A stretch of DNA of 64,000 nucleotides from Narcine bancroftii (lineage: Eukaryota), in contig NC_091470.1 in assembly GCF_036971445.1 (NCBI RefSeq), positions 291,710,001 to 291,774,000 of the forward strand, read 5' to 3'. Both the position numbers and the translations under genes were made by a program. The notes below the pieces were generated by a model. It did not search any database and was not told the DNA's origin. It saw only the letters and a program-made list of their open reading frames with translations. Below are positions 2,941-64,000 of the stretch, in pieces (position 1 is the stretch's first letter; every line of letters begins with the position of its first letter).

Positions 2941-4919
2941 ATTTGCATTTTCACAGTCTCCTGGTGCCTTTCCTAATGAAGCAGACTTGGGAAGGCCACA
3001 ACCTAGTACCTCTGCTTCCACTTCCTTTAACTTCCTAGGATGTGTGAGGGATGTTAGCCTTTAATCTCATTAATATGTTAACTTATCTCTGTTTATAACA
3101 ACATTAATTTTTCACCCTTGGTTCTGCTCTTGGATTTTTCATAATTATTTGGATATTTTAGTGTCTTTTTACACAAAGAGAGAAACTAAATATTTGTTCA
3201 AAGAATCAATTCTATTTTCTTATTTCCCTTTATTAATTCTCAAGTCTCATCCTTTCAAGAACTAATTTAGCCATTTTTACACTGAAAAGCCACATTATTG
3301 CCATATATATGGCCCATCTCTGGAAGCCCGCTTGCTTATTCACATAAAACAGAGGAAAACCTGAAGCAAAAGAGGCAAGAAATGTAGCACAGCAGTGTCG
3401 GTGCTTAGTGTGTTGTGTTGAGAAAAGCATCAGATGCCATTGCTTCAAGGATTTGCAATCACATGTAGCTTTTATTAATTGTGTACTGTTTAACATTTTC
3501 CCATGCTCTTCTATAAATTGTGCGCATGTGTGTTTTATTCTCGTAATGTTTTCTATGCTCTTCTACAAATTGTTGTGTGATAATAAAAACTACATGTGAT
3601 TGGAAACCCTTGTGACCTTGTGCTGACATTCGTACACAATGCTTTACTCACTATGCAATGAACCTTTGCTGGACCTAAGATTATGATGTCACCTTCCCTT
3701 CCAGTTTCGACCCAGCAACACAGGTCGCCTCTTTTAGACTGGCCCTGCATCAATATGCTCCTCTGACATTACCTACCTTGGTGGATTAAAGCCAGCTAAG
3801 TTCAGACCCCCAATCCGCCTTTGATGTGTTCACACAGCTACGTGAAACATTCGAAAGGTGGATAATACCTGGCTTTAATTATCTGTGTAAAAGGGGTATA
3901 TGCTTACCTTAGCTCCTCACTTCATTTTAAAATATTTTATGTTTCTCTCTACTACATTGTGCCCAGAATAGATTTCTACCTGATGACTGAAGATGATTGA
4001 CTATTAAGGTTTAAGGTTTCTAACACTTGTTACATAATATTTGTCAGTCAAAGACAGGTTGGCTTTCTTTGTTGTGGCATTTTTTTTAAATGGGGTAATA
4101 AACCTACCAGGGTTGAATTCATGTATTTTTTTCTTTATACAAAATTCATTGAGTTATTAAATTTTTATGAGAAGAATAATCAGTAATATTGGCTCAAATT
4201 CTTACTCGAGTATTTTTTGTATTAAACTCATTGAACTATTTATTTTTACAAAAAGAATATTGAGAATTATACATTCATTTTTCTCTTATTTCAAATTTGA
4301 ACTTGCATCATACTTTTTAAAATTGCATGGGAAATGTTAAAAATCCTTTTCTTGGTTGTAGTCATAATAGAATTAAGTATCATTTGGAAGAGCTGATTAT
4401 ATTTACATTAACAGGAATGGAGCTAGAGATAACATGTCCAGCAGTACGATTTATTTGGGTGTAAAATGGATTGTTTTGAAGAGCTTGCTGTTGACATCTT
4501 TAGCAGCTATCTGGCTTTGGGGTAGAAGTGGGGTGGGAAGGAGGGTTTGTTTTCTCAAGGTTATAACTTTAGGAATCTGTACAGATTCTGACCTTGTTAG
4601 GGTTATTTACAATTTATCACCAGCTTCATATTTTTGCCTAAAGGCTGACACCTGGTACCTGGATATTATTTGTGCTAATTAACTTACAATTTTTATGAAA
4701 ATGTATGGATAATTCTATTAATTTCCTTAGTTGGAACATGAAAGGTTTGAATCGTCCTGTTAAGACAAGTGTTTTCACATATTAAACAATTTAAAGCTAC
4801 AATTTTTTTTAACAAGAAAAGCATATTCACAGTTGTGATAATTCCCACCTCATTACAAGGTGGAGGGGGCAGAATTTTCATTCCTCCTTTCTGGCTAAAA
4901 CCGGGCTGAGGGGGCATCT

Positions 4920-12205: not shown

Positions 12206-12927
12206 ACTCGCCAAGGCAAATAGCGCCTTTGGAAGACTACACAAAAGAGTCTGGAAAAACAACCAACTGAAAAACCTCACAAAGATAAGCGTATACAAAG
12301 CCGTTGTCATACCCACACTCCTGTTCGGCTACGAATCATGGGTCCTCTACCGGCATCACCTACGGCTCCTAGAACGCTTCCACCAGCGTTGTCTCCGCTC
12401 CATCCTCAACATCCACTGGAGCGCTTTCATCCCTAACGTCGAAGTACTCGAGATGGCAGAGGTCGACAGCATCGAGTCCACGCTGCTGAAGATCCAGCTG
12501 CGCTGGGTGGGTCACGTCTCCAGAATGGAGGACCATCGCCTTCCCAAGATCGTGTTATATGGCGAGCTCTCCACTGGCTACCGTGACAGAGGTGCACCAA
12601 AGAAAAGGTACAAGGACTGCCTAAAGAAATCTCTTGGTGCCTGCCACATTGACCCCCGCCAGTGGGCTGATATTGCCTCAAACCGTGCATCTTGGCGCCT
12701 CACAGTTTGGCAGGCAGCAACCTCCTTTGAAGAAGACCGCAGAGCCCACTCACTGACAAAAGACAAAGGAGGAAAAACCCAACACCCAACCCCAACCCAC
12801 CAATTTTCCCCTGCAACCGTGTCTGCCTGTCCCGCATCGGACTTGTCAGTCACCAACGAGCCTGCAGCTGACGTGGACTTTTACCCCCTCCATAAATCTT
12901 CATCCGCGAAGCCAAGCCAAAGAAAGA
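12206..12927 (+). mobile_element. 5'-truncated RTE-clade LINE with TSD
   Basis: Encodes RTE C-terminus (QLRWVGHVSRMEDHRLPKIVLYGEL…RGAPKKRYKD); tail …gaagccaagccaaagaaaga; perfect 10-bp TSD ATTCTGCATG at 12196-12205 and 12928-12937. Confidence 0.9.
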
Positions 12928-37800: not shown

Positions 37801-38826
37801 TATATGTTTCATCTTAACTCCGTTTGTTAAATATATGCATTTAAGTTTGAATTAAATATGTTTTTTAAGTCTGATATCTTAGTATTAATTACTTTTTGTT
37901 AGTATTTTAATCGGTTATGTTTTTGTTTTTTTTTTGTAAGTGGGTTTTTTTCTCACATATTATTAACTTTATTAATTCTTCACTCTTTATTTTGGGGGGA
38001 AAGGGGGGGGTTGGACTAATTTGAGTTAGATTGTTAATGTGTAATAATTATTGGGGAGGGTATAGTTTATTTAGATTACTGATACTGTATTGTAATTTTA
38101 TTATTTTATTCTTAATTTTTTTTAATGTAATCCTATATGTTATTCATGTTATAAAATCTTAAATAAAGTTTAAAAAAAAAAGAAAGTTGGTAGCACTACA
38201 GCGCACAATTTATGAAGACCGTGGGAAAAAGCAATGGCAGACCTCACTTCCCAGAATGTCATGTGGCAGAGAAATCCCTCCATAATTGCTCCGTTGCTGC
38301 AGCCGAGCTTACAACCCTTTCTCTGCTGCATGGATTTCTGGGAGAGCAGGTCCACCATCACTTTTTCCCCCTCAGTATTTATAAATTGTCCGTGATAGTG
38401 CTACCAACTTTCCCACGCTATATAAATTGAGTACTATAGTGATACCAACTTACCCTGTTCAAAAATTGTCCACTATTGCTATTTATTGCTGGCACGTTCC
38501 CATGGTCCCTTATAAAGATTTATAAAGGTCAGCACAACATCATCAGGGGTTGAAGGGCTCATACTGTGCTACACATAAAGCTTAATTAGGCATGCTTAAT
38601 TTTGTTCAAATGTAAGATCAGAATACATTGATCAGAATTTAGGGCAGGTTCACCATCGCTCAATGTGTCATGACATCACCAGTAGAATAGTCCTAACCCC
38701 AGGGATGGCTCCTTGCAAGTGTGAAAGCATCCCAGTTAGGAGTGGCCAAGTGTGAAAAGACAAACCCCTTTTCCTATCCTGGGACACTGAATGGCCAATT
38801 TAGTGAGATGCAAGTGTGAAAGGGGC
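34863..38826. mobile_element. Fold-back MITE (~1 kb without insert) split by an L1-derived element
   Basis: TIR GCCCCTTTCACACTTGCAT…ATGCAAGTGTGAAAGGGGC flanked by TA (or TTAA); internal inverted arms aaatagcaatagtggacaattttt / aaaaattgtccactattgctattt. Confidence 0.8.
35222..38181 (+). mobile_element. ORF1-only L1-derived element (HAL1-like), complete with TSD
   Basis: 15-bp TSD GAAAGTTGGTAGCAC (35207-35221, 38182-38196); ORF1 ~35360-36830 with ENQSRRNNIKIIGLPEG, LERAH, FFYADLSQEV…RREF; only eroded EN traces after it; aataaa plus A-tail. Confidence 0.85.
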
Positions 38827-46900: not shown

Positions 46901-47869
46901 CAAAAGCTGGAGATTTTCTTTTGCAGTGTTTTCCATCCAGTTATTGGAACTTATAAAGATGACCTTGAATTTGGATACTATAATGTATATATGGGTTATT
47001 TTTAATGGAGAACATGTCCTGTTTAAAAGAAAATGAAATAATTGATGAGAAATGTAAGGAAACATTTATGAGAGCAGGATGACACTGGCAAATGTTCAGC
47101 AAATTTGGTTTGTTTATATTTGTGGTTGCTGTACTTAATATCTGCAATGAATTACTCTATAATGTAACATCTGTATTATAATAGTATATATTGTACAGTA
47201 CTAAGTGACTTGTACAGTACTTGTTCTTTACTTGAATGCTATAAAATAAGTATATTCAATAAGCATCAGCTTGCTGTTGGCATGAGTTATGAGCATATAT
47301 ATTGAAGGTGCAATAAATTAATGTTTCCCGTGAATATTGTCCAAGTGTTTTAACATTTCAAATGGCTACAATATAGGTTGGCATGCAAGACTGAATTTGA
47401 ACACCCCAATTTGAAAATGACACCCCAAAACCAGGGGTCTTTTTGAATGCTAGGTTTAAAATCTAAACGTTATTATTGTATGGTTTAGAATGTTCCCCAT
47501 GGTGATGGAGAACAGCAAAAAACACTCATATAACTCCTACAGTCCTACCACTAAATATTTATCTACTAAAAGTTACATTTGGGAAGCTGGATTAATAGTA
47601 ATGTTAAATTAAAACTACAAAATGTATTATAAACCTGTTTAACATACCTTAAAATAACAGCAGTGACCAGTTACCTGTACTTTTGCCTAAGTGATGGCAC
47701 TAGTATATGCATTACACCACCATGTTTGATGCCCATTATGGTAGGTAATTGACTGTATTTTGCCATTACTTGAAATGAATTGGCAAATTTTAAATCACCA
47801 AGACTGTGTTGCTTAATAGTGTGTTTTAACAGCATCACTCCACTGGTTAGTGGGATGGTTGGTATAGAA

Positions 47870-48151
47870 CAGTGGTTTTCAAACTGACCCCCTAAACCCA
47901 CATTCCATCTTAAGCAATCCATATTGGCATAAGTGCTCTGTGATTAGTAAGGGATTGCTTAAGGTGGATTTTGGCCCATTTCCTTTGGAGTTATGAAACC
48001 ATGCACATAACGAGTCAATTAGTGGTTTTCTAACTTTTTCTTTCTACTCACATACCACCTTAAACAATCCCTTACTAATCACAGAGCACTTATGGCATAG
48101 GGATTGCTTAGGGTGGAATATGAGTTTATGGGGGCAGTTTGAAAACCACGG
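47870..48151. mobile_element. hAT-type palindromic MITE (possibly a composite of two)
   Basis: CAGTGGTTTTCAAACTG.CCCC…GGGGGCAGTTTGAAAACCACGG termini; ~95-bp inverted arms; 8-bp TSD not evident. Confidence 0.75.
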
Positions 48152-48759
48152 TTTTAAACTCTGATGAATAGTGGCCTAATCTATTATCCATCTATTATTG
48201 GCCAAATCTATCCATTATCTATAGAAATTTACAATATCTTTTCAAAATTAGATTACCTTTGTGCCATATGAAATAATGCTTCCATTTCCAAACTTTAAGA
48301 CCCTGATTCCACCTTGTTTTCTAGGATCATGCAAATCACAACTTTGTCTGCACATCCAGAGTCTGGACCCACTAACTGTGTATCTTTTAAATTTAATTTT
48401 ACTGTTCTTTAGTTAATGTAATAATCTCCACCTGGGCCCTCCATTCATGGTTCATTGTTTCCTATTCAAAATTCTGAAGAAATTTCATTTTTTTTCCCCT
48501 CCACAATGCTCTTGCATCCTGAAGTCCTCCTCTCGACCCTGAAATCCTTCACAACTCTATACTCTAATTGCATTGCTTCCGGATATAAGTATTAATCAAA
48601 ATGCTGCCACTTCAGGTGTCGAGTAAGTTTTCAAAGGCTCGGCCCTCAGGTGAGTCAGACGGTGTTTGGTTCCTGGATTTTTCCAGGACACTGCACATTA
48701 CTTGGGCTGATTTCAGTGTGTAAAGCTACTCCACCACAATCTAATTTTCCCCTGTCTCA

Positions 48760-54769: not shown

Positions 54770-55330
54770 GAGATTCAACCAGAAACAGACCCTTCAGCTT
54801 GTCCTTGCAGACCAGGTTTCCATCTCATTTCCCTTTGTTAGGCACATATCCCTTCAAAGCTTTCTCTCTAAATCTTTCCCACCCAAGTACCTGTTTCATT
54901 CCATCTGCCCACCACTCCTGATGTGGAAAATGTTGACCCTCGGGGGTTGCTTTTAAAACTTTTCCCTTGTGTTAAACTCCTTGCTCCCTCGTTTGAGGCC
55001 CCTGCCCTGAAAAAGACTGATCTATGCCTCTCATGATTTAGTGCACTTCTGCAAGTCAACCCTCAGTCTTCTACCCTCCAGGGAAAAATGACCCAGCCTC
55101 TCGTAATGTCCATAACGTTTTGCACACTTAACACCTTAATAACATCCTTCTTGTAGCTGGACAATCAGAACTGTCCAAGTATTCCAAAAATAGCTTCACA
55201 AACATCATGTATATATCTATAAACTTCCCAACTCCTGTACTCAATACCCTGATCAGTGAAAGCAAGCCCTCCATCACCACTCTGTCTATATGCACCTGAA
55301 CACAATCCAGGGCCCTGCCATTTACTGTGC
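54770..55330 (-). mobile_element. Degraded CR1 3' fragment
   Basis: CR1 C-terminal and tail phrases (aacttcccaactcctgtactcaataccctg; cagacccttcagc). Confidence 0.6.
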
Positions 55331-56455
55331 AAGTTCTTCCCTTGAATGATAAAGCAGATGGTTGACCCACATTTGCTATTGTCTGTTTAACTATATCCTG
55401 ACATTGGGGGAGCCCAGCATATGTGTGCCAAAGCAAGCTAGCTTGAAAATGCTTAAAATAGTTGTAACACCATAATTATGCTCAGTTGGTACTACTCTTT
55501 ACCCTATCTTCACATGCCATCCACTGCAGATGGTGGCAAATGTCATCATTGGGTTTGTCCTTTGCTGTCAAATATCTCCCAATGTATAGTTCACAATTTC
55601 ATTGATAATTTTTTAATGACTTGTTGTTGAAACAGGTTGGAAGAAAGGCTTGGTTTTCCTGATGCTGACTTTAAGGCTAATTCTCATGTATGCTTCAGTG
55701 AGGGAGTTTGTGATTGCTTGGAAATTAGCATGGGCAGTTCTTACAGGTTGGATTGGTCTTGGTATCGGGGCTGAATAGTTTCCAATTTGGCCAACAGACT
55801 CGTTCTCATCCATTCATCAGAAAGGAATATTGGTAATGATCTTTTCTAATTTTCATCCTGCTAATGAAGGGGTATGAACAGGGTATTTTTGTAATGTGGA
55901 TACCAAGGAATAATCTCCACAAGATCAATTCTGTTAAAGAGTTTGTGGGATTAACATCTAGTTTGGCTCATAAAGGTGAAGGAGCATCATTTTTACACTT
56001 GTTTACTGATAACTGTTGTCACTTCTTCCACTGAAATATGCGAATTATCAGTGATCTGAATTAAGCATTTTGATTGACAGGAAAATTGAAGTACATTATA
56101 TGATTAGCCGGTAGTTTGTATTATGAGTAGATTAGTGCAATTCTTATTTTGTTTTATTCCATTTTTAATTTTCCTTGACATTAATATGTTTCTCATGGAT
56201 TAAGTAAATCACTGATTTGAAATATGTTAGTGAATGACATGATATAAATGTTTATTCTTCCCTTGGAAATGCAGCTTGGACAAAAATACTGAATTTTCTT
56301 TATCCAAGTTTGAAATCCTTAGAATTCACTTTTTCCTGATGAATATTTACTTTCATTGCTTTGGGAAAGAACATTCTGTTTTTATATTCATCACTTTTAC
56401 TGTAGTTTGTGCAAATTAATTTCAAAGTGTAAAATAATATGTCTTTTGGAAACAG

Positions 56456-56561
56456 TGAAGATGATGACAATGAACATCTGTTCCAAGATCCTGATCATGA
56501 CATCCCTCATCAGAAAATTACAAAGAAGCTCTGTAACAAAGTTAAATGGATACCTGATGAG
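56456..56561 (+). CDS. MYBL1: MYBL1 coding exon 2 (106 nt; EDDDNEHLFQDPDHDIPHQKITKKLCNKVKWIPDE)
   Basis: Acceptor aaacag|, donor GAG|gtaaat; acidic stretch plus start of Myb repeat R1 (KKL.N.VKW..DE is A-MYB-like); phases agree with exons 1 and 3. Confidence 0.9.
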
Positions 56562-56639
56562 GTAAATCTAAGGAGTTCATTGCACGACGAAGGGCTTTTT
56601 TGATCATGTAAATGCAATTTAAGAACTCCAGCTCGAAAT

Positions 56640-56830
56640 ATCATGTTAGCACAACTCTCAGTGACCTGGGTTTGAATCTGCTGCTGTCTGTAAGGAGTTT
56701 GTATGTACTTGTGTCCTACGTGGGGTTTCTCTGGTTTCTTCCCACCCTGCAAAACATATAGTTAATTGGGTGTAATTAGGCAGCATGGGGTTCATGGGCC
56801 AGCAGGACTTTCTACTGTGCTGTACTGTAT
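56640..56830 (+). mobile_element. tRNA-derived V-SINE-like element
   Basis: gacctgggtttgaatctg (B box), tctgtaaggagtttgtatg, ggtttc…ttcttcccac core. Confidence 0.7.
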
Positions 56831-57036
56831 CATTAAAATTAAATCAAGAAAATAATTTTATTAATGCTGTAATAGTAAAAGTGTAAGCTGGTTTCTGTCT
56901 GAATTCTTGTAGATATACCATTCTGTAGATGCTTTTGCCAAGATTTTAAAAAGGTCTTGGTTGTTCTAGTTTCTGCCATAATCCCTGTGGCTTTCTTTTA
57001 TTAATGGTAATTTTTCTGCCCCCTTTTGTTAAACAG

Positions 57037-57108
57037 GATGAGAAGTTAAAGAAGTTGGTAGAAGAACATGGTACAGAAGATTGGAATTTTATTGCTAGTC
57101 ATTTTCTT
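57037..57108 (+). CDS. MYBL1: MYBL1 coding exon 3 (72 nt; DEKLKKLVEEHGTEDWNFIASHFL), Myb repeat R1
   Basis: Acceptor ttttgttaaacag|, donor |gtaagt; canonical Myb R1 helices; synteny with VCPIP1 supports MYBL1 over MYB or MYBL2. Exon 4 not found in the window. Confidence 0.93.
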
Positions 57109-58454
57109 GTAAGTGTTCAATAATTGAATTGTGATTATTTTTAAAAAATTTTTTTAAAGCCATAATGTTAATGTGATTGGTTAAAACCATTCATTAAAGA
57201 GAATAGTACTGCTTCTAACTATTTTGTAGCTAGAATTTCCAGGAGAAAATATAAGTATAGGGAGAGTAATTTCTTATTTTGTGAGTTCTGTCACCATCGG
57301 TTCATCTTTGTGATTTTATTGGGAGTTCCAATTTTGAATTAGGATGCAGATGAATTACTTTTTTTTCTCAACTGGCAAAAAAGGAAACTGAGAAGGAACT
57401 AATCTTTAATTTCAAATAATAATTAACTTTTTAAATATATCATTGTCTATTTACATCAATTAGAGCATGACTTTAAAAGAATAAATCTCTTCAGTAGGAG
57501 TTTAATACATTGATGCAAGTAAATTACAGCAACATTTGCTGAACAGGGCATCTCCTTTATTGAATAAAATTAAAGGAATAAGAAAGTGGTGGGAATAATG
57601 GTAAAAGAAAATTTGTTCAGCTAACAAAAGGAATAGAGAGCAAAAGACAGACTGTTGAAAAACAGGAAAAACAAAAAGCAATTTTTTTCAGGAATCATAA
57701 ATCTTGTCAATAAAATGTTCCTTGGCACAATTAATTACAAGCCTGAGGCTTTTGAGGTGTATTTAGCATCTGACAAACATAATTTCTTGAATCTAACTGG
57801 ATGTTTGATGGTGAACTGCTGCCTTTACTATTCTAACCATCAAACATCAATTTATACCAATCCATTGCATTCACCTGACATTTCCAACAGCTACCCCAGC
57901 TTCTACTGCTTATCTTTACATTGGAGTGTGGTCCTCAAGAGGAGAGGAGAAGGATGATGGGGGTGGGGGGAGGGTGAGAGAACAATTTATAGTGGTCAAC
58001 AAACTTACTTGGCATGTTGTTTGAAATTTTGGAGAATGTACACAAAGTCAAGATTAAGGCAGTCTCTGTAGCTATAAAGCAGCAACTCAACTGTCCATAC
58101 TACTGTACCACACTAATCTGTGATTTGTGAATTTATGTAAAAGATTGGAGATCAGACTAAATATTTAATTGAGAAAGATATTTGGGGACCAAAGATAGAT
58201 AAGACATGTTAATTAAGAGGGAGAGCTAGTATTTTGAGAATAGCAGTAGTAGTGATGGAATAAATAGTTATGCTTCTTAGAATTGACATGGCATTTAGAA
58301 TTTTGTTTTGAAGATTCCTGCACTCTGAGCTGGAAGAAGATATGAGGCCTCTTATCTTGGTCATGAACTTTTGTGACAAAGGCTGGACAGAGGATATCCT
58401 TGTTTGTACATCCAAAATGATGGGAAGTACAGTTGGTTGGAAGATATTGCTTGA

Positions 58455-58665
58455 ATCTGTGGAACTTGTTGCCACAGGCAGCTGTGGAACGAGGTTGTTG
58501 GGTGTATTTAAGGCAGAGATTGACAGGTATTTGATAGTTAGGACATCATGGATTATGGGGAGAAAGCCGGGGAGTGGGGCTGAGTAGGAGGATGGATCAG
58601 CTCATGATTGGAATGGTGGAGCAGACTCAGTGGACCAATTTGCCTACTACTCCTGTGATCTCTTG
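58455..58665 (+). mobile_element. CR1 3' tail
   Basis: aatctgtggaacttgttgccacaggcagctgtgga…tttaaggcagagattgacagg…cagactcagtggacca. Confidence 0.75.
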
Positions 58666-58848
58666 GAGCAAAGCAACCTGTTTTAGCCTCTGTTTTAACA
58701 GAAGGCCCTCTTATGTATTGTTGAATTCCTTGATACTTCATTGATTTTTTCCAGTTACGGTATGCGCCACTTAACATCCACGATATGTTCTGTGAAATTG
58801 GGCATTATGAGATTGTGGATGTTGTGCAAACACCATATTACTGTGTAT

Positions 58849-59527
58849 CGGGGTGGCCAACCTTTTACATTCCATGCGTCAATTTTTTCACACACAAGTT
58901 CAGATGCACCACACAATTCTTGTACCCTTTACAATTCTTGTAAAAATGTTAATATCGACACATTTAGCATTTTTGCATTATATATTGATTTAATATAAAA
59001 ACAATATAAACATTACTTACCTTAATGAGACTTTTGAGCCTGTTTTGATTTTGCCAAGCTTTTAATGTTACAAAACTGCAAACGTACACAAAGGACGAAC
59101 AAACCACAACACCGTGGTGCACGATTGTCAATTGTAAACTGACTGACAAAAACCTCCGACGCACTGCTGGTGCAGATGCCTGGCACTTCAGGATCAAATA
59201 AATATCAAACTGCAGAACAAAAGTCCTTTCCTAGTTTGACTCATTGAACATTTTTTAAAAATTAAAATAGATTAATTTGAAACAAGATAACATTTGCCAA
59301 AAGATGTGCATGAAATAATAAAATCACTAAAGATAATTGCTAAGTTTTAGATTTATTCTTAGTAAAACCTATTTCAATCTCTAAGTTACTTGAATTCCTG
59401 TTATATATTTTTTCTACTAATTGGTTTTGGTTAATACTTTTTGCATCAGTAGGCTTACTTTTTTATTCATATCACTGGGGTACAATGTGCCACTTTTGGC
59501 GCATTCGCCATAGGTTGGCCATCTCTG
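58849..59527. mobile_element. hAT-type non-autonomous DNA transposon
   Basis: Termini C(A)GGGGTGGCCAACC…GGTTGGCCATCTCTG; degenerate 8-bp TSD ctgtgtat/ctgtatgt. Confidence 0.65.
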
Positions 59528-59757
59528 CTGTATGTACTTAGCAAAGCTATATAGGATACTGAACTTTAATTGTTTAATTTTTTTTCACTTAAACTTTTTG
59601 TAAACACTTTCTTAGCCTATATCACATAATTTAACAAAGAGGATCATCCACATCACTGTTCTCAACTTCCTCATAGTGTTCCACTAGAAGAGTTTCAGGT
59701 CGAATAAACTCAATTGATGAACTGTCACTCTGTAATGCTCTTTTTGGAGAGGTACCA

Positions 59758-60782
59758 TGGAACACTACAGCACAGAAAACAGGCCATTTGTCCTTTCTAG
59801 TCTGTGCCAAAATGTTATTCCACTAGTCCCATTGACCTGCACCCAGTCCATAACCCTCTAGTCCTCTCAAATCCATGTATCTATCCAATTTATTCTTAAA
59901 ACTTAAGAATGAGACCGCATTTATCTTAACAGATGGCAGCTTGTTCCACACTCCCACCATTTTCTGAGTGAAAAAGTTCTCCCTAATGTTCCCCCTAAGC
60001 CTTTCACCCTAAAGCCATGTCCTCTTGTATTTGTCTCTCCTAATTTAAGTGGAAAGAGCCTACTCAAATTTACTGTCTATACCCCTCGTAATTTTGTGAA
60101 CCTCTATCAAATCTCCCCTCATTCTTCTACAGTCCAATAAAGTCCTAACCTGTTTTAATCTTTCCCTCTAACTCAACTCCGGAAGATCCGGCAACATACT
60201 AGAAAATCTTCTCTGCACTCTTTCAACCTTACTGATATCCTTCCTGTAATTTCGTGACCAGAGCTGCACACAATACTCCAAATTTGGCCTTGTCAATGTC
60301 TTTTACAACCTCACCATAACATTCCAACTCCTGTACTCAATACTTTGATTTATGAAGGCAAAGATGCCAAAAGCTTTCTTTACAATCCTGTCCACCTGTG
60401 ATGCCACTTTCTGGGAATTATTTATCTGTATTCCCAGATCCCTTTGTTCCTCCACATTCCTCAGTGTTTTTGTCCCTCCAAAATGCAACACCTCACACTT
60501 ATCTGCATTATATTCCATTGGCCATTTTCTGGCCCATTTTTCCAGTTGGTCCAGATCCCTCTGCAAGCTTTGAAAGCCTTCTTCATTGTCCACAACACCT
60601 CTAATCTGAGTTCATTCAGCAAACTTGCTGATCCAATTTCCCACACTATCAGCAGATCATTGATATAGACCACAATGGTCCCAGCACCACTAATCACAGG
60701 CCTCCAGTCTGACAAGTAATCATTCACTACCACTCTCTGTCTTCTCCCATTCAGCCAATTTTGAATCCAGTTTATAACCTCT
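59758..60782 (-). mobile_element. CR1 LINE 3' ~1 kb
   Basis: [30 protein letters not shown]…QRDLGIQI…KKAFGIFAFI; tail matches the copy at 22750-23200. Confidence 0.92.
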
Positions 60783-62775
60783 GGGTGGTGAGGGGGTTGC
60801 AGCGTGATCGGTAATGGTCTCCGGAACCCCTGAGAGCACCAGGCCCCTAATAGAGATTTTGGAGGTTGGTGTCATGGTCTTGTAGGTCAAGGTCTACCAT
60901 TCAGTCCATCTCCCGCTGGAAGACTGCCAGTATATTTGTGGTCCTTCTCGAAACCAGAATATGGGTGGTCCTCCAGGCAGATGAGGAGCTGATGGTATGC
61001 TGACTTTAGGTCAGTGGTGAAGAAAACCCGATATTGCGTGATTTGGTTTACCATATCGGATATGCGGGGAGAGGGTACACGTCCAGCTGAGTGCATCTGT
61101 TAATGGTTTGACTGTAGTTGATGGCCATTCTCACCACCACCACTTAGGCTCTCCAAGAGCTGATGCTGGGTTCAATGATCCCCTCACTGAGTAGCCGTTG
61201 TACCTCCATCTTAATGAAGGCACTGTACCACCTACTTTTGGTGGTAATGGGTTTACAATCAGGGATGAAGTTAGCAAACAGCAGTGGAGGGGTGATCTTG
61301 AGAGTCTGCAGGTTGTGCGCTGTGGGCCATCTTGGCTGGGAGTGGTGAGGGAAGAAGCCAGCGGGTTTATGCTGGTGGAGACCAGTGGGCGATTTAAGAA
61401 CTGCTAGTTACAGACAGTGTGGGGGGGGGGGGGGCATCAAATTCTATCATCATGCTTTTAAGGTGGCATTAGAGGTCCAGTCCCGGTAGCATGGCACCGC
61501 AATGCTGTGATATCACCAGGAGTTTAAAGTCTTTGTAGACAGTGCCCCACATGGTCAGGGTCACTACACAGTAGTCGTGGACATCAGCTGTACGGGTCTT
61601 TGAGGCAAAGGAGACTTTGTGGCTCACAGGCTTAACCACGAGGGATTAATACTGCACTGTATCTGGGTGAATGAAGCTCTCTGTGCTCCCACTATTGAAC
61701 AGCCAGCTCGTCACATAGCCATTTACCTGGATGTCCATCATCGATCTGGCAAACTGGTGAGGATTACCTTTGTCCAGCGTGATGGAGGCCAGTGTTGAGT
61801 CACTGCCTGTAGCTGCGGTGGAGAGTTTGTGTGTTCGGTTGCAAGGTGACGGTATCCAAGATGGTGGCCGCCACGGCTCACACATGGCGTTGATGTGCCT
61901 CAAATATGGTGGCGTCAAAGGTGGCGGCTCCGACGGTCCACGTGCGGCGTTACTGGGTTGAGGTGGCTTGGACTTGCATACTTTCGCGTATTGCTCTTTC
62001 TTCCCGCAGTTGGAGAAGACCGCTTCTTTTGCCAAGCAGTGTTTCCTCGGGTGTTTGCTCAGACCACAGAAGTAGCACTTCGGGTGCTCAGGAGTACAGA
62101 GGCCGTGGTCGGATCGTTGGGGGGATGTGGCGATAGCGGTGTTAGGTGTTTGGATTGATGGTGGTGCATGGCGGTGGCAACGCATCCCAAGATGGTGGTG
62201 TCCACGTTGTTGGACGAGTAGCCTTAAATATTCTTGAGGGCCACCTCCAGTGCGCCTGTCAGTTTGACTGCTCTCTGCAAATTGAGCTCACCTTGTTCCA
62301 ATGGTCTTTGACAGGTGTAATTGGACCTGATGACTGCGACATATGCATCTCTTGTCAGATCCTCCATGTTCTCCATGGCTGTCACGGCCTTGTAGTCCCA
62401 GTCCCGTCCAAGAATTGGTAGGGTCAGGAGATACTCAGCGCTCAATTCCCCGGGTCACTGTTTTCGGATGGCTAGGAAGCGTCTCGAGTAGACCTCATTT
62501 ACCTTCTTCAGGTTCTGGCCTTTCAGAATGTCCATCACCTCCGAGTTTGACACAGTATCCCTGGTCATTGAGTATACCAGGGGCTGACCCGGGAGTGTTG
62601 TATCTGCAGCTTGTCATTCTCTAATTGGACGATGGCAGATGATGCCTACAGGATCGCTTCAAAGCAATGCAGCCAGAGTTCAAAGTTGGTGGAGGCTTCA
62701 GGTGATTGTGGATCGATTCCCAACTTCTCCTGCTTCAGGATCTGCTCCATTGTCAAAATCTATTGTGAATAAAAT
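60783..62775 (-). mobile_element. Gypsy (Mag-like) LTR retrotransposon internal region: gag (ATG 62750), two CCHC knuckles, protease, partial RT; decayed and truncated
   Basis: MEQILKQEKLGIDP… gag start; CYFCGLSKHPRKHC and (C)SNCGKKEQYAKVC; LF(D/N)SGSTESFI protease; FFTTDLKSAYHQL RT motif. Confidence 0.85.
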
Positions 62776-62997
62776 TGATGCACCATCAATAACTCCAAAA
62801 GACTGGAAGTTATGTGAAACTGATAGGCTTTTATTCGCAATAGAATGGAGCCACGTCCATTCTAGTCGACTGTCCTGAACTGGGGAGGGGGCTGTGGAAC
62901 AGTCACCTTTGTTCAGGAGTCTGTGGGAGGAGCCACAGGTACAGTCGGCCAATGGGTGTGCCCAGACAGTTAAATATACAAATGGTGGTTTACCACA
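62776..62997 (-). mobile_element. 5' LTR (222 bp) of the Gypsy element
   Basis: Minus strand TGTGGTAAAC…AATAAAAGC…GGTGCATCA, TG…CA ends, 25 nt upstream of the gag ATG. Confidence 0.85.
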
Positions 62998-63810
62998 CAC
63001 ATGCCCTTCATGGTCACATCATCTCTGGCCCAACAAGGTTCTTTATGCAATGTAAAATGTTGTACTCCTTCCAGAACTGCATCAGTGTCATCAGTTGCAG
63101 TAACAGCCTGAGCAAAGGTCCTCCTCGGGTAGTAGGCCTTGAATGCTGCAATAACCCCTTGGTCCATTGGCTGAATGAAAGAGGTGGTGTTTGGTGGGAG
63201 GAACGCCACTTTGACGTTGGGTTGGAGGTCACCAATGAAAGGGGGAAGTCCTGGAGCATTGTCTACAATTAGCAAAATCTTGAAAGGTATGCCTTCTTCG
63301 AAGCAGTACTTCTCCATTTCACTGGCATATCAATTGAGAAACAGGATTTGTGTTATCCAGGACTTTTTATTGCTCCTGTAATAAGATGGCAAGGTGTGTT
63401 TGTTAATGTTCTTGAAAGCCTTGGGTTTTTCACTAAGCCAAATAAGAAATGGCCTTAATTTGTAGCCAGCAACATTGCCTCCTAACAACACTGTCACTCT
63501 GTCTTTAAAAGCCGTAAAGCCTGGCATTGACTTGGCCTCCTTATGAATGAAGATCCTTTCAGGCATTTGCTTTCAGAATAAGAAGGTTTTGTCCATATTA
63601 AAAGTTTGCTGGGGCAAATAAGCTCCCTCTATAATTACCATAGTTTATCTAAGGTTTCAACAAATTCTTCTGCCTTCGCATCAGCACTTGCAGACTCATC
63701 ACTCACTTTCATATGATGCAGCAAAAACATTGTTTGAAGCGCCCGAACCACCCAGAGCGAGCATTAATCTCAATATCCTAATCTGGTCCTGCTTTTTCTT
63801 TAAGCATGTG
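62998..63810 (-). mobile_element. Tigger1-like pogo transposase pseudogene (CENP-B-type HTH end + DDE_1 domain)
   Basis: SGWFGRFK, ESASAD, MPERIFIHKEAKSMPGF.AFKDRVTVLLGGN, KILLIVDNAPG, FLPPNTTSFIQPMDQGVIAAFKAYY; stops and frameshifts. Confidence 0.9.
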
Positions 63811-64000
63811 TGTGGTGAACTGCTGTACACTCATTTATCTAGCTCTGCCCCATTCTGTGACTGTACCCATGGCTCCTCCCCTTGACCTTATATAAAGGTC
63901 CCAACACCATAATCCCTCTCTAGAAAGCCTTGGTTACAGCACAGGATGACGAAGGATATGTAAATAAAAGCATATTGTTCTGTAACTCCAGTCCTTCAAG
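63811..64000 (+). mobile_element. Related Gypsy LTR, truncated by window edge
   Basis: TGTGGTGAAC…gactgtacccatggctcctcccc…TATATAAAGG…AATAAAAGC…ccagtc, collinear with the LTR at 62776-62997. Confidence 0.75.

Follow-up and report, generated by a model that had tools for sequence, protein, structure and literature searches.

Probable tRNA-independent self-priming in a chromodomain-less animal Gypsy lineage whose primer site is complementary to the poly(A)-signal segment of its own LTR

To our knowledge, self-priming of reverse transcription is proven only for the yeast retrotransposons Tf1/Tf2; for the related chromoviruses and a single copia group it is a prediction. In Tf1/sushi elements the primer site lies just past the CA of the LTR and is complementary to a segment of the LTR, and no tRNA is used (available excerpts of PMC4600332, PMC5341516 and PMC7175516). 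The RNase H of Tf1 cuts between bases 11 and 12 (excerpt of PMC7175516), and the primer is formed by the extreme 5' terminus of the RNA, held inside a pretzel of three duplexes (excerpt of bioRxiv 2022.12.06.519325). Self-priming was also predicted for Tcn1 of the moss and fungal chromoviruses and for the copia elements TAR/Houba/Osr-1, based on at least 10 bp of complementarity located 0-5 bp past the LTR (excerpt of PMC6317226). These three groups are the only ones for which self-priming is reported in the available excerpts of PMC6317226, PMC4600332, PMC5341516 and PMC3601003. A literature search, with Butler 2001, Simmen and Bird 2000, Repbase notes and some supplements outside its scope, returned no report of self-priming in a chromodomain-less animal Gypsy element and none of a primer ending in a poly(A) signal.

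The element described here lies in a 64-kb window (the whole stretch of DNA that was analysed, 64,000 nucleotides). Like the Tf1/sushi elements, its lineage has a primer site complementary to its own LTR and no tRNA site, and related proteins have the Ty3/gypsy domain order PR-RT-RH-IN in one ORF, as in Tf1/Tf2 of Schizosaccharomyces pombe, Tj1, Tosmo and the Tf1/sushi chromoviruses. At least 10 bp of complementarity 0-5 bp past the LTR is shared with Tcn1 and TAR/Houba/Osr-1, which belong to other lineages and hosts and for which the excerpt of PMC6317226 gives no link to a poly(A) signal. Several features set the lineage apart from Tf1/sushi. The relatives have no chromodomain (13 of 13 proteins), and their hosts include invertebrates. 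The helix between primer site and LTR arm, here called P1, is 13-18 bp across the lineage compared to 11 in Tf1; the arm ends in the poly(A) hexamer, is in ray-type LTRs probably not at the 5' end of the RNA, and is followed directly by a second conserved helix, P2. The features of the window copy were as follows.

62776..62997, minus strand: 5' LTR, 222 bp, TG...CA; 5' end placed by ray protein P0011, 3' end deduced from two-LTR relatives.
62907..62916, minus strand: TATA-box position, non-consensus in the window copy, aligned with TATATAAA of the second LTR (63889) and with the LYK codons of P0011; putative function.
62841..62864, minus strand: 9-bp hairpin sharing the outermost 4 nt of the arm; according to folding, formed only without the primer site (3'-LTR context).
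62829..62844, minus strand: LTR arm of helix P1, candidate self-primer, ending AATAAAA (hexamer at the 3' end).
Between 62829 and 62828, minus strand: predicted cut.
62780..62828, minus strand: long hairpin filling the loop, starting at the first base past the arm (GCC...GGT core, helix P2), from folding.
62775..62775, minus strand: single spacer base from LTR end to primer site, a distance kept in 38 of 44 distinct arm/site pairs.
62759..62774, minus strand: primer binding site position, complementary to the own LTR arm, no TGG.
62744..62750, minus strand: gag start codon region, which according to folding would pair with 62851-62845 and lengthen P1 in the window copy; variable in relatives.
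61650..62750, minus strand: gag (two CCHC knuckles) and protease, disrupted by stops and frameshifts.
60880..61320, minus strand: broken 5' part of RT; the element is truncated here, RNase H, integrase and 3' LTR missing.
63811..64000, plus strand: second LTR, related family, with TATATAAA (63889) and AATAAAA at an AATAAAA/GC junction (63969); runs off the window.

The original prediction had claimed a 15/16 reverse complementarity between 62774-62759 and 62844-62829 (both minus strand), a perfect 9-bp hairpin at 62864-62841 (minus strand) and the absence of a TGG-initiated tRNA site after the LTR. On re-reading of the window letters, coordinates and letters were found to be exact, the hairpin having a 6-nt loop, and no TGG followed the CA of the LTR in the window copy. 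The sole mismatch of the window helix is a C.A at 62837/62766. Both T-A and C-G pairs were seen at this place in relatives, and the mismatch may reflect either CpG decay or a T>C change on the side of the LTR arm. The 16-mer is separated by 8 bases from the gag ATG (62750). The fold of the region had a z of -3.57, with 2 of 200 shuffles equally good. No tRNA gene was found in 55000-63100, and an Rfam search gave two chance-level matches only, far under the gathering score.

The window element is a dead Gypsy copy in which only an LTR, gag, PR and part of RT were recognized. The RVT_1 match of its RT (E 0.046) was below the cut-off, a Pfam search of six window pieces gave only a weak RT and a DDE_1 match, and a word-index search with the gag N-terminus gave no match. 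Near 60880 the truncation adjoins what we take, from its translation, to be a LINE RT fragment. No second copy of the 5' LTR, and no 3' LTR, was found within the window. The 5' border of the LTR could be set because ray protein P0011 reads through the PPT into the start of an LTR homologous to that of the window. Two related LTRs stand back to back in the window around a pogo/Tigger-like DDE_1 fragment, and their outer flanks, when read in the direction of the LTR, are identical over 7 bases (62998-63004, minus strand, and 63804-63810, plus strand); target duplications of relatives showed no preference for this sequence. Elsewhere in the window, two long inverted repeats of 71-74% identity (38182-38412 and 47862-48159) are probably non-autonomous DNA transposons, and a 242-bp inverted pair (1-242 and 12373-12614, 96.7% identity) is a young repeat.

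The nearest named proteins were from rays and sharks (Hypanus, Mobula, Hemitrygon, Narcine and Mustelus), and named members of the wider family were found in cnidarians, a sea cucumber, crustaceans and Trichinella. Intact relatives have a length of 3980-4232 bp and a single ORF of 1177-1239 aa; their LTRs span 150-230 bp and their target duplications 5 bp. The features of Ty3/gypsy elements, namely gag-PR-RT-RH-IN, TG...CA LTRs, a PPT and a target duplication, were all present in relatives. Two CCHC knuckles were observed in 64 of 67 related proteins and GPY/F in none of the 67. A search with chromo families at E 0.01 found no chromodomain at the integrase C-terminus of any of 13 related proteins; the window copy itself has no IN. 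The RT active-site motif had N in place of the last D (YxDN rather than YxDD) in 70 of 99 motif matches and in 44 of the 64 full-length proteins having an RT motif, including intact single-ORF copies with YMDN, YLDN or YVDN (L010, L027, L003, L023). The two forms are interleaved on the RT tree. A change from YxDD to YxDN blocks transposition of Ty1. A literature search gave no paper on YLDN in retrotransposons. The Cigr-1 clade or the Mag lineage is a candidate placement for the window lineage. The Cigr-1 element of Ciona has a length of about 4.2 kb; its LTRs are short and its single ORF comprises about 1200 codons. The compact single ORF, short LTRs and two CCHC knuckles are shared by the relatives with the Cigr-1 clade and the Mag lineage, features that are not diagnostic. 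The Cigr-1 clade has been reported from molluscs (available excerpt of PMC6238403), and no priming mode for the Cigr-1/Mag clades is given in the available excerpts. A clade name for the window lineage was not found in the available parts of PMC3670739, PMC2774666 or the PMC8556966 supplements.

Relatives were obtained by a metagenome scan, in which the best 80 of 104 were kept. Nine of these were set aside (six start inside gag and three have less than 70 nt upstream), and the remaining 71 loci plus the window, 72 sequences, formed 28 families at 80% gag identity. RT identity among the positive families ranged from 42 to 85%, with a median of 58, and the RT tree covered the window lineage only. 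Viral contigs gave one unrelated match (L001) and a second scan none. Seven further loci (L082-L088) were collected afterwards as a held-out set. These are animal-type retrotransposon contigs inside GTDB bacterial genomes, probably host contamination of the MAGs.

The complementarity between the post-LTR site and the LTR is real and lineage-wide. At least 12 of 14 site bases paired with the own LTR in 23 of the 28 families, taking the best member and including the window. Mean pairing was 13.6 of 14 with the own LTR and 8.7 across families, where 28 of 506 pairs reached 12; at positions 7-14, outside the hexamer, the values were 7.6 and 4.1 of 8. Most of these positions showed three or four Watson-Crick pair types across families. 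Covariation between the site and the AATAAAA region, the check proposed with the original prediction, was observed: compensatory change keeps the pairing down to 42% RT identity. An unanchored search for the best inverted repeat upstream of gag found the same helix, which scored above each of 30 dinucleotide shuffles in 49 of 71 sequences; two of the 71 contained N and had no shuffle control. Five families fell below 12/14, namely L018 (deletion), L036 (9 bp, same register), L020 (10/14), and L034 and L080 (nothing found). In L018 (5900-6000), half of the 5' LTR and most of the primer site are deleted, and 6 leftover bases match the arm of the 3' LTR. Two of the seven held-out loci have no 5' end, and the other five all paired 13/13, L083 sharing its arm with L028. 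Held-out L085 is the closest RT relative of the shark and ray proteins (support 100/99). This locus (3270-3357) lies in a bacterial MAG bin and is likely mis-binned; it has a T spacer, an arm ending AATAAAA like the window, and a P2 changed on both sides to TGG/CCA.

P1 was found to be strictly Watson-Crick. In the 38 in-register rows (494 cells, six rows dropped), 4 G-U and 4 A-C were counted, the ratio expected under neutral decay. All 44 distinct rows together gave 515 Watson-Crick pairs, 23 G-U, 4 A-C and 29 other, and 19 of the 23 G-U were in the six out-of-register or chance-helix rows (L018, L034, L036, L049, L072, L081). In P2, G-U made up 27 of 153, mostly at one position. P1 was kept where the hexamer is non-canonical (L003, L031, L035, L043, L084), the site having changed along with the hexamer.

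The register of the site was equally constant. The spacer from the LTR's CA to the helix was 1 nt in 38 of the 44 distinct arm/site pairs (0-4 allowed, G-U counted as a pair), with a P1 loop that varied from 24 to 72 nt across relatives. Leaders in relatives were 15-53 nt long. A TGG at the site, which the original prediction had asked to be sought in relatives, was present in 0 of 23 families. In 19 of 23 families the end of the arm falls within A(A/T)TAAA or one base away from it, and the arm is oriented with its 3' end towards the LTR end, as a primer must be. P2 starts at the first base past the arm (RCCT...AGGY, with the variants ACCAA/TTGGT and TGG/CCA) and has at least 4 bp in 15 of 23 families, compared to 3.2 expected; its partner lies 8-54 nt from the primer site, non-adjacent to it. 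The original prediction had also noted a geometry differing from that of Tf1, and this was borne out. The outer duplex of the pretzel is missing, pairing between the sequence 3' of the site and the loop being 4.4 nt against 4.3 nt in shuffles, and a TATA(-like) box precedes the arm's inner end in both window LTRs, TATATAAA by 80 nt in the second and the homologous non-consensus position by 84 nt in the first. From these positions the cap would fall 35-40 nt upstream of the arm. A consistent TATA position was not found in the other 22 families.

The most probable reading is that the post-LTR site of the lineage serves as a Tf1-like self-primer site, tRNA-free and in a different layout, to which we give a probability of roughly 0.72. 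The RNA would fold so that the primer site pairs with its own poly(A)-signal segment via P1. By analogy with Tf1, the RNase H of the element would cut the RNA just past the hexamer, at the P1/P2 junction (hexamer|RCC), and the freed 3' end of the arm would start reverse transcription without a tRNA. The minus strong-stop cDNA, from the cut to the LTR end, would be just 23-71 nt, and could jump via the stretch from hexamer to poly(A) site, which is usually some 10-30 nt long. In ray-type LTRs the primer would be capped and about 50 nt long, with only its last 16 nt paired. The primer would be copied back into the primer site every cycle, which could explain both the fixed spacer and the strict Watson-Crick pairing of P1. 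Such copying is established for tRNA-primed elements, and for Tf1 it was reportedly addressed by Atwood-Moore in 2006. A second use of P1 would be to hide the hexamer in the 5' LTR only. The tRNA-independent priming suggested by the original prediction is favoured by the fixed 1-nt spacer, the strict Watson-Crick pairing and the persistence of P1 without a canonical hexamer.

Some observations stand against self-priming. The primer of Tf1 is the very 5' end of the RNA, but the window TATA places the start before the arm; the outer duplex of the pretzel is not above chance; and five of 28 families do not reach 12/14. AT-richness and the shared hexamer inflate the pairing, as the cross-family mean of 8.7 illustrates, and the low G-U count drops six rows, which, when included, raise G-U to 23 against 4 A-C in 44 rows. 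The overlap left for strand transfer would be short, and most relatives have a YxDN rather than a YxDD RT.

The duplex could instead be a regulatory fold only, one that conceals the poly(A) signal of the 5' LTR and possibly also the start codon of gag, with priming by something not visible in the sequence. Folding predictions are consistent with such a role. With the window LTR alone, the 9-bp hairpin was predicted to form and five of six hexamer bases were unpaired at 0.86-1.0. When the leader was included, P1 reached about 1.0, the hairpin was gone, so that it is predicted to form only in the absence of the primer site, and the hexamer was unpaired at 0.01 or less. Over the families, the unpaired probability fell from 0.48 to 0.04 with the leader and was lower in 21 of 22; the canonical hexamer at the arm's inner end in 19 of 23 families fits as well. 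In HIV-1 and other retroviruses, a poly(A) hairpin in R occludes AAUAAA; it is local, present at both ends, and accompanied by tRNA priming. The window lineage would likewise occlude AAUAAA in R, whereas its partner strand is the primer site, present at the 5' end only. The original prediction of masking at the 5' LTR alone agrees with the folding in that the hexamer is closed only with the leader present; whether this masking, open at the 3' LTR, is a by-product or a second function is about an even bet. As the sole role of P1, masking is unlikely. It would need no fixed distance to the LTR end and should tolerate G-U pairs, which are rare in P1, and P1 remains perfect in families whose hexamer is non-canonical; L003 even has a canonical hexamer outside P1. 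Start-codon pairing was variable, at probabilities of 0-0.99 across relatives, and a conserved pairing of the gag AUG was not supported. Furthermore, leaders of only 15-53 nt leave no room for another primer site. Because of the fixed spacer and strict Watson-Crick pairing, self-priming is better supported than masking.

The same duplex could also form with an arm donated by the 3' R of genomic RNA (the same or a co-packaged molecule) or by a short, prematurely ended transcript, its tail clipped to the hexamer and the 5' R left uncut. Such a donor would explain why the arm ends exactly at the hexamer, would free the RNA start from coinciding with the arm and would leave a long overlap to use in strand transfer; it too predicts a fixed register and strict Watson-Crick pairing. 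The local hairpin, however, is predicted at a probability of about 1 and would occupy the site first, and no precedent was found in the literature search. A donated arm is regarded as rather improbable.

Ordinary tRNA priming would require the LTR end to be misplaced, the real site being TGGTGCAT (62785-62778) or a tRNA fragment. The end cannot be read off a 3' LTR, as the window contains none, and a TGG lies 10 nt inside the assumed end. Against this, five families with two LTRs end in CA + 1 nt + TTTA.. in the same context as the window, which places the window LTR end, by inference, at ...CATCA. In the two-LTR copies listed, the CA of the 5' LTR was followed by A and then T in 11 of 11, L083 and L086 agreeing, and an exact 5-bp duplication was present in 8 of these 11 from three families, two apparently representing one insertion. 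The TGG 10 nt inside the window LTR belongs to P2, the GGT in TGGTGCAT being the 3' strand of this conserved helix. A fixed tRNA is ruled against because each family's site follows the changes of its own LTR, and tRNA priming is considered very improbable. Chance complementarity of AT-rich sequence, to which the non-significant match of the 16-mer across the 64-kb window (BLAST E 0.58) and the cross-family mean of 8.7/14 might point, was refuted by the family data and deserves next to no credence, since a complement of at least 15/16 was found in 0 of 20000 shuffled LTRs, which is significant given its position, and the same register recurs in 23 of 28 families and in all 5 held-out loci with an intact 5' end.

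A broader proposal, with the odds somewhat against it, is that a widespread Gypsy lineage of animals, which lacks the chromodomain, ranges from cnidarians to sharks and rays and has a YxDN RT, evolved self-priming apart from Tf1. Its poly(A) signal would be the 3' end of the primer, and one helix would block 5' polyadenylation, mark the cut and supply an internal primer from a longer capped (or 3'-terminal) RNA. Self-priming as read here gives exact predictions, namely a cut at hexamer|RCC and a strong-stop cDNA of 23-71 nt, and explains how PBS-based LTR finders would miss or mislabel elements of this lineage. If correct, it would add a second Gypsy lineage with another layout, so that tRNA-free priming would have arisen more than once. 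It would also link two long-standing questions about LTR elements, the source of the primer and the way in which the 5' poly(A) signal is ignored, and would extend self-priming to marine invertebrates and cartilaginous fishes.
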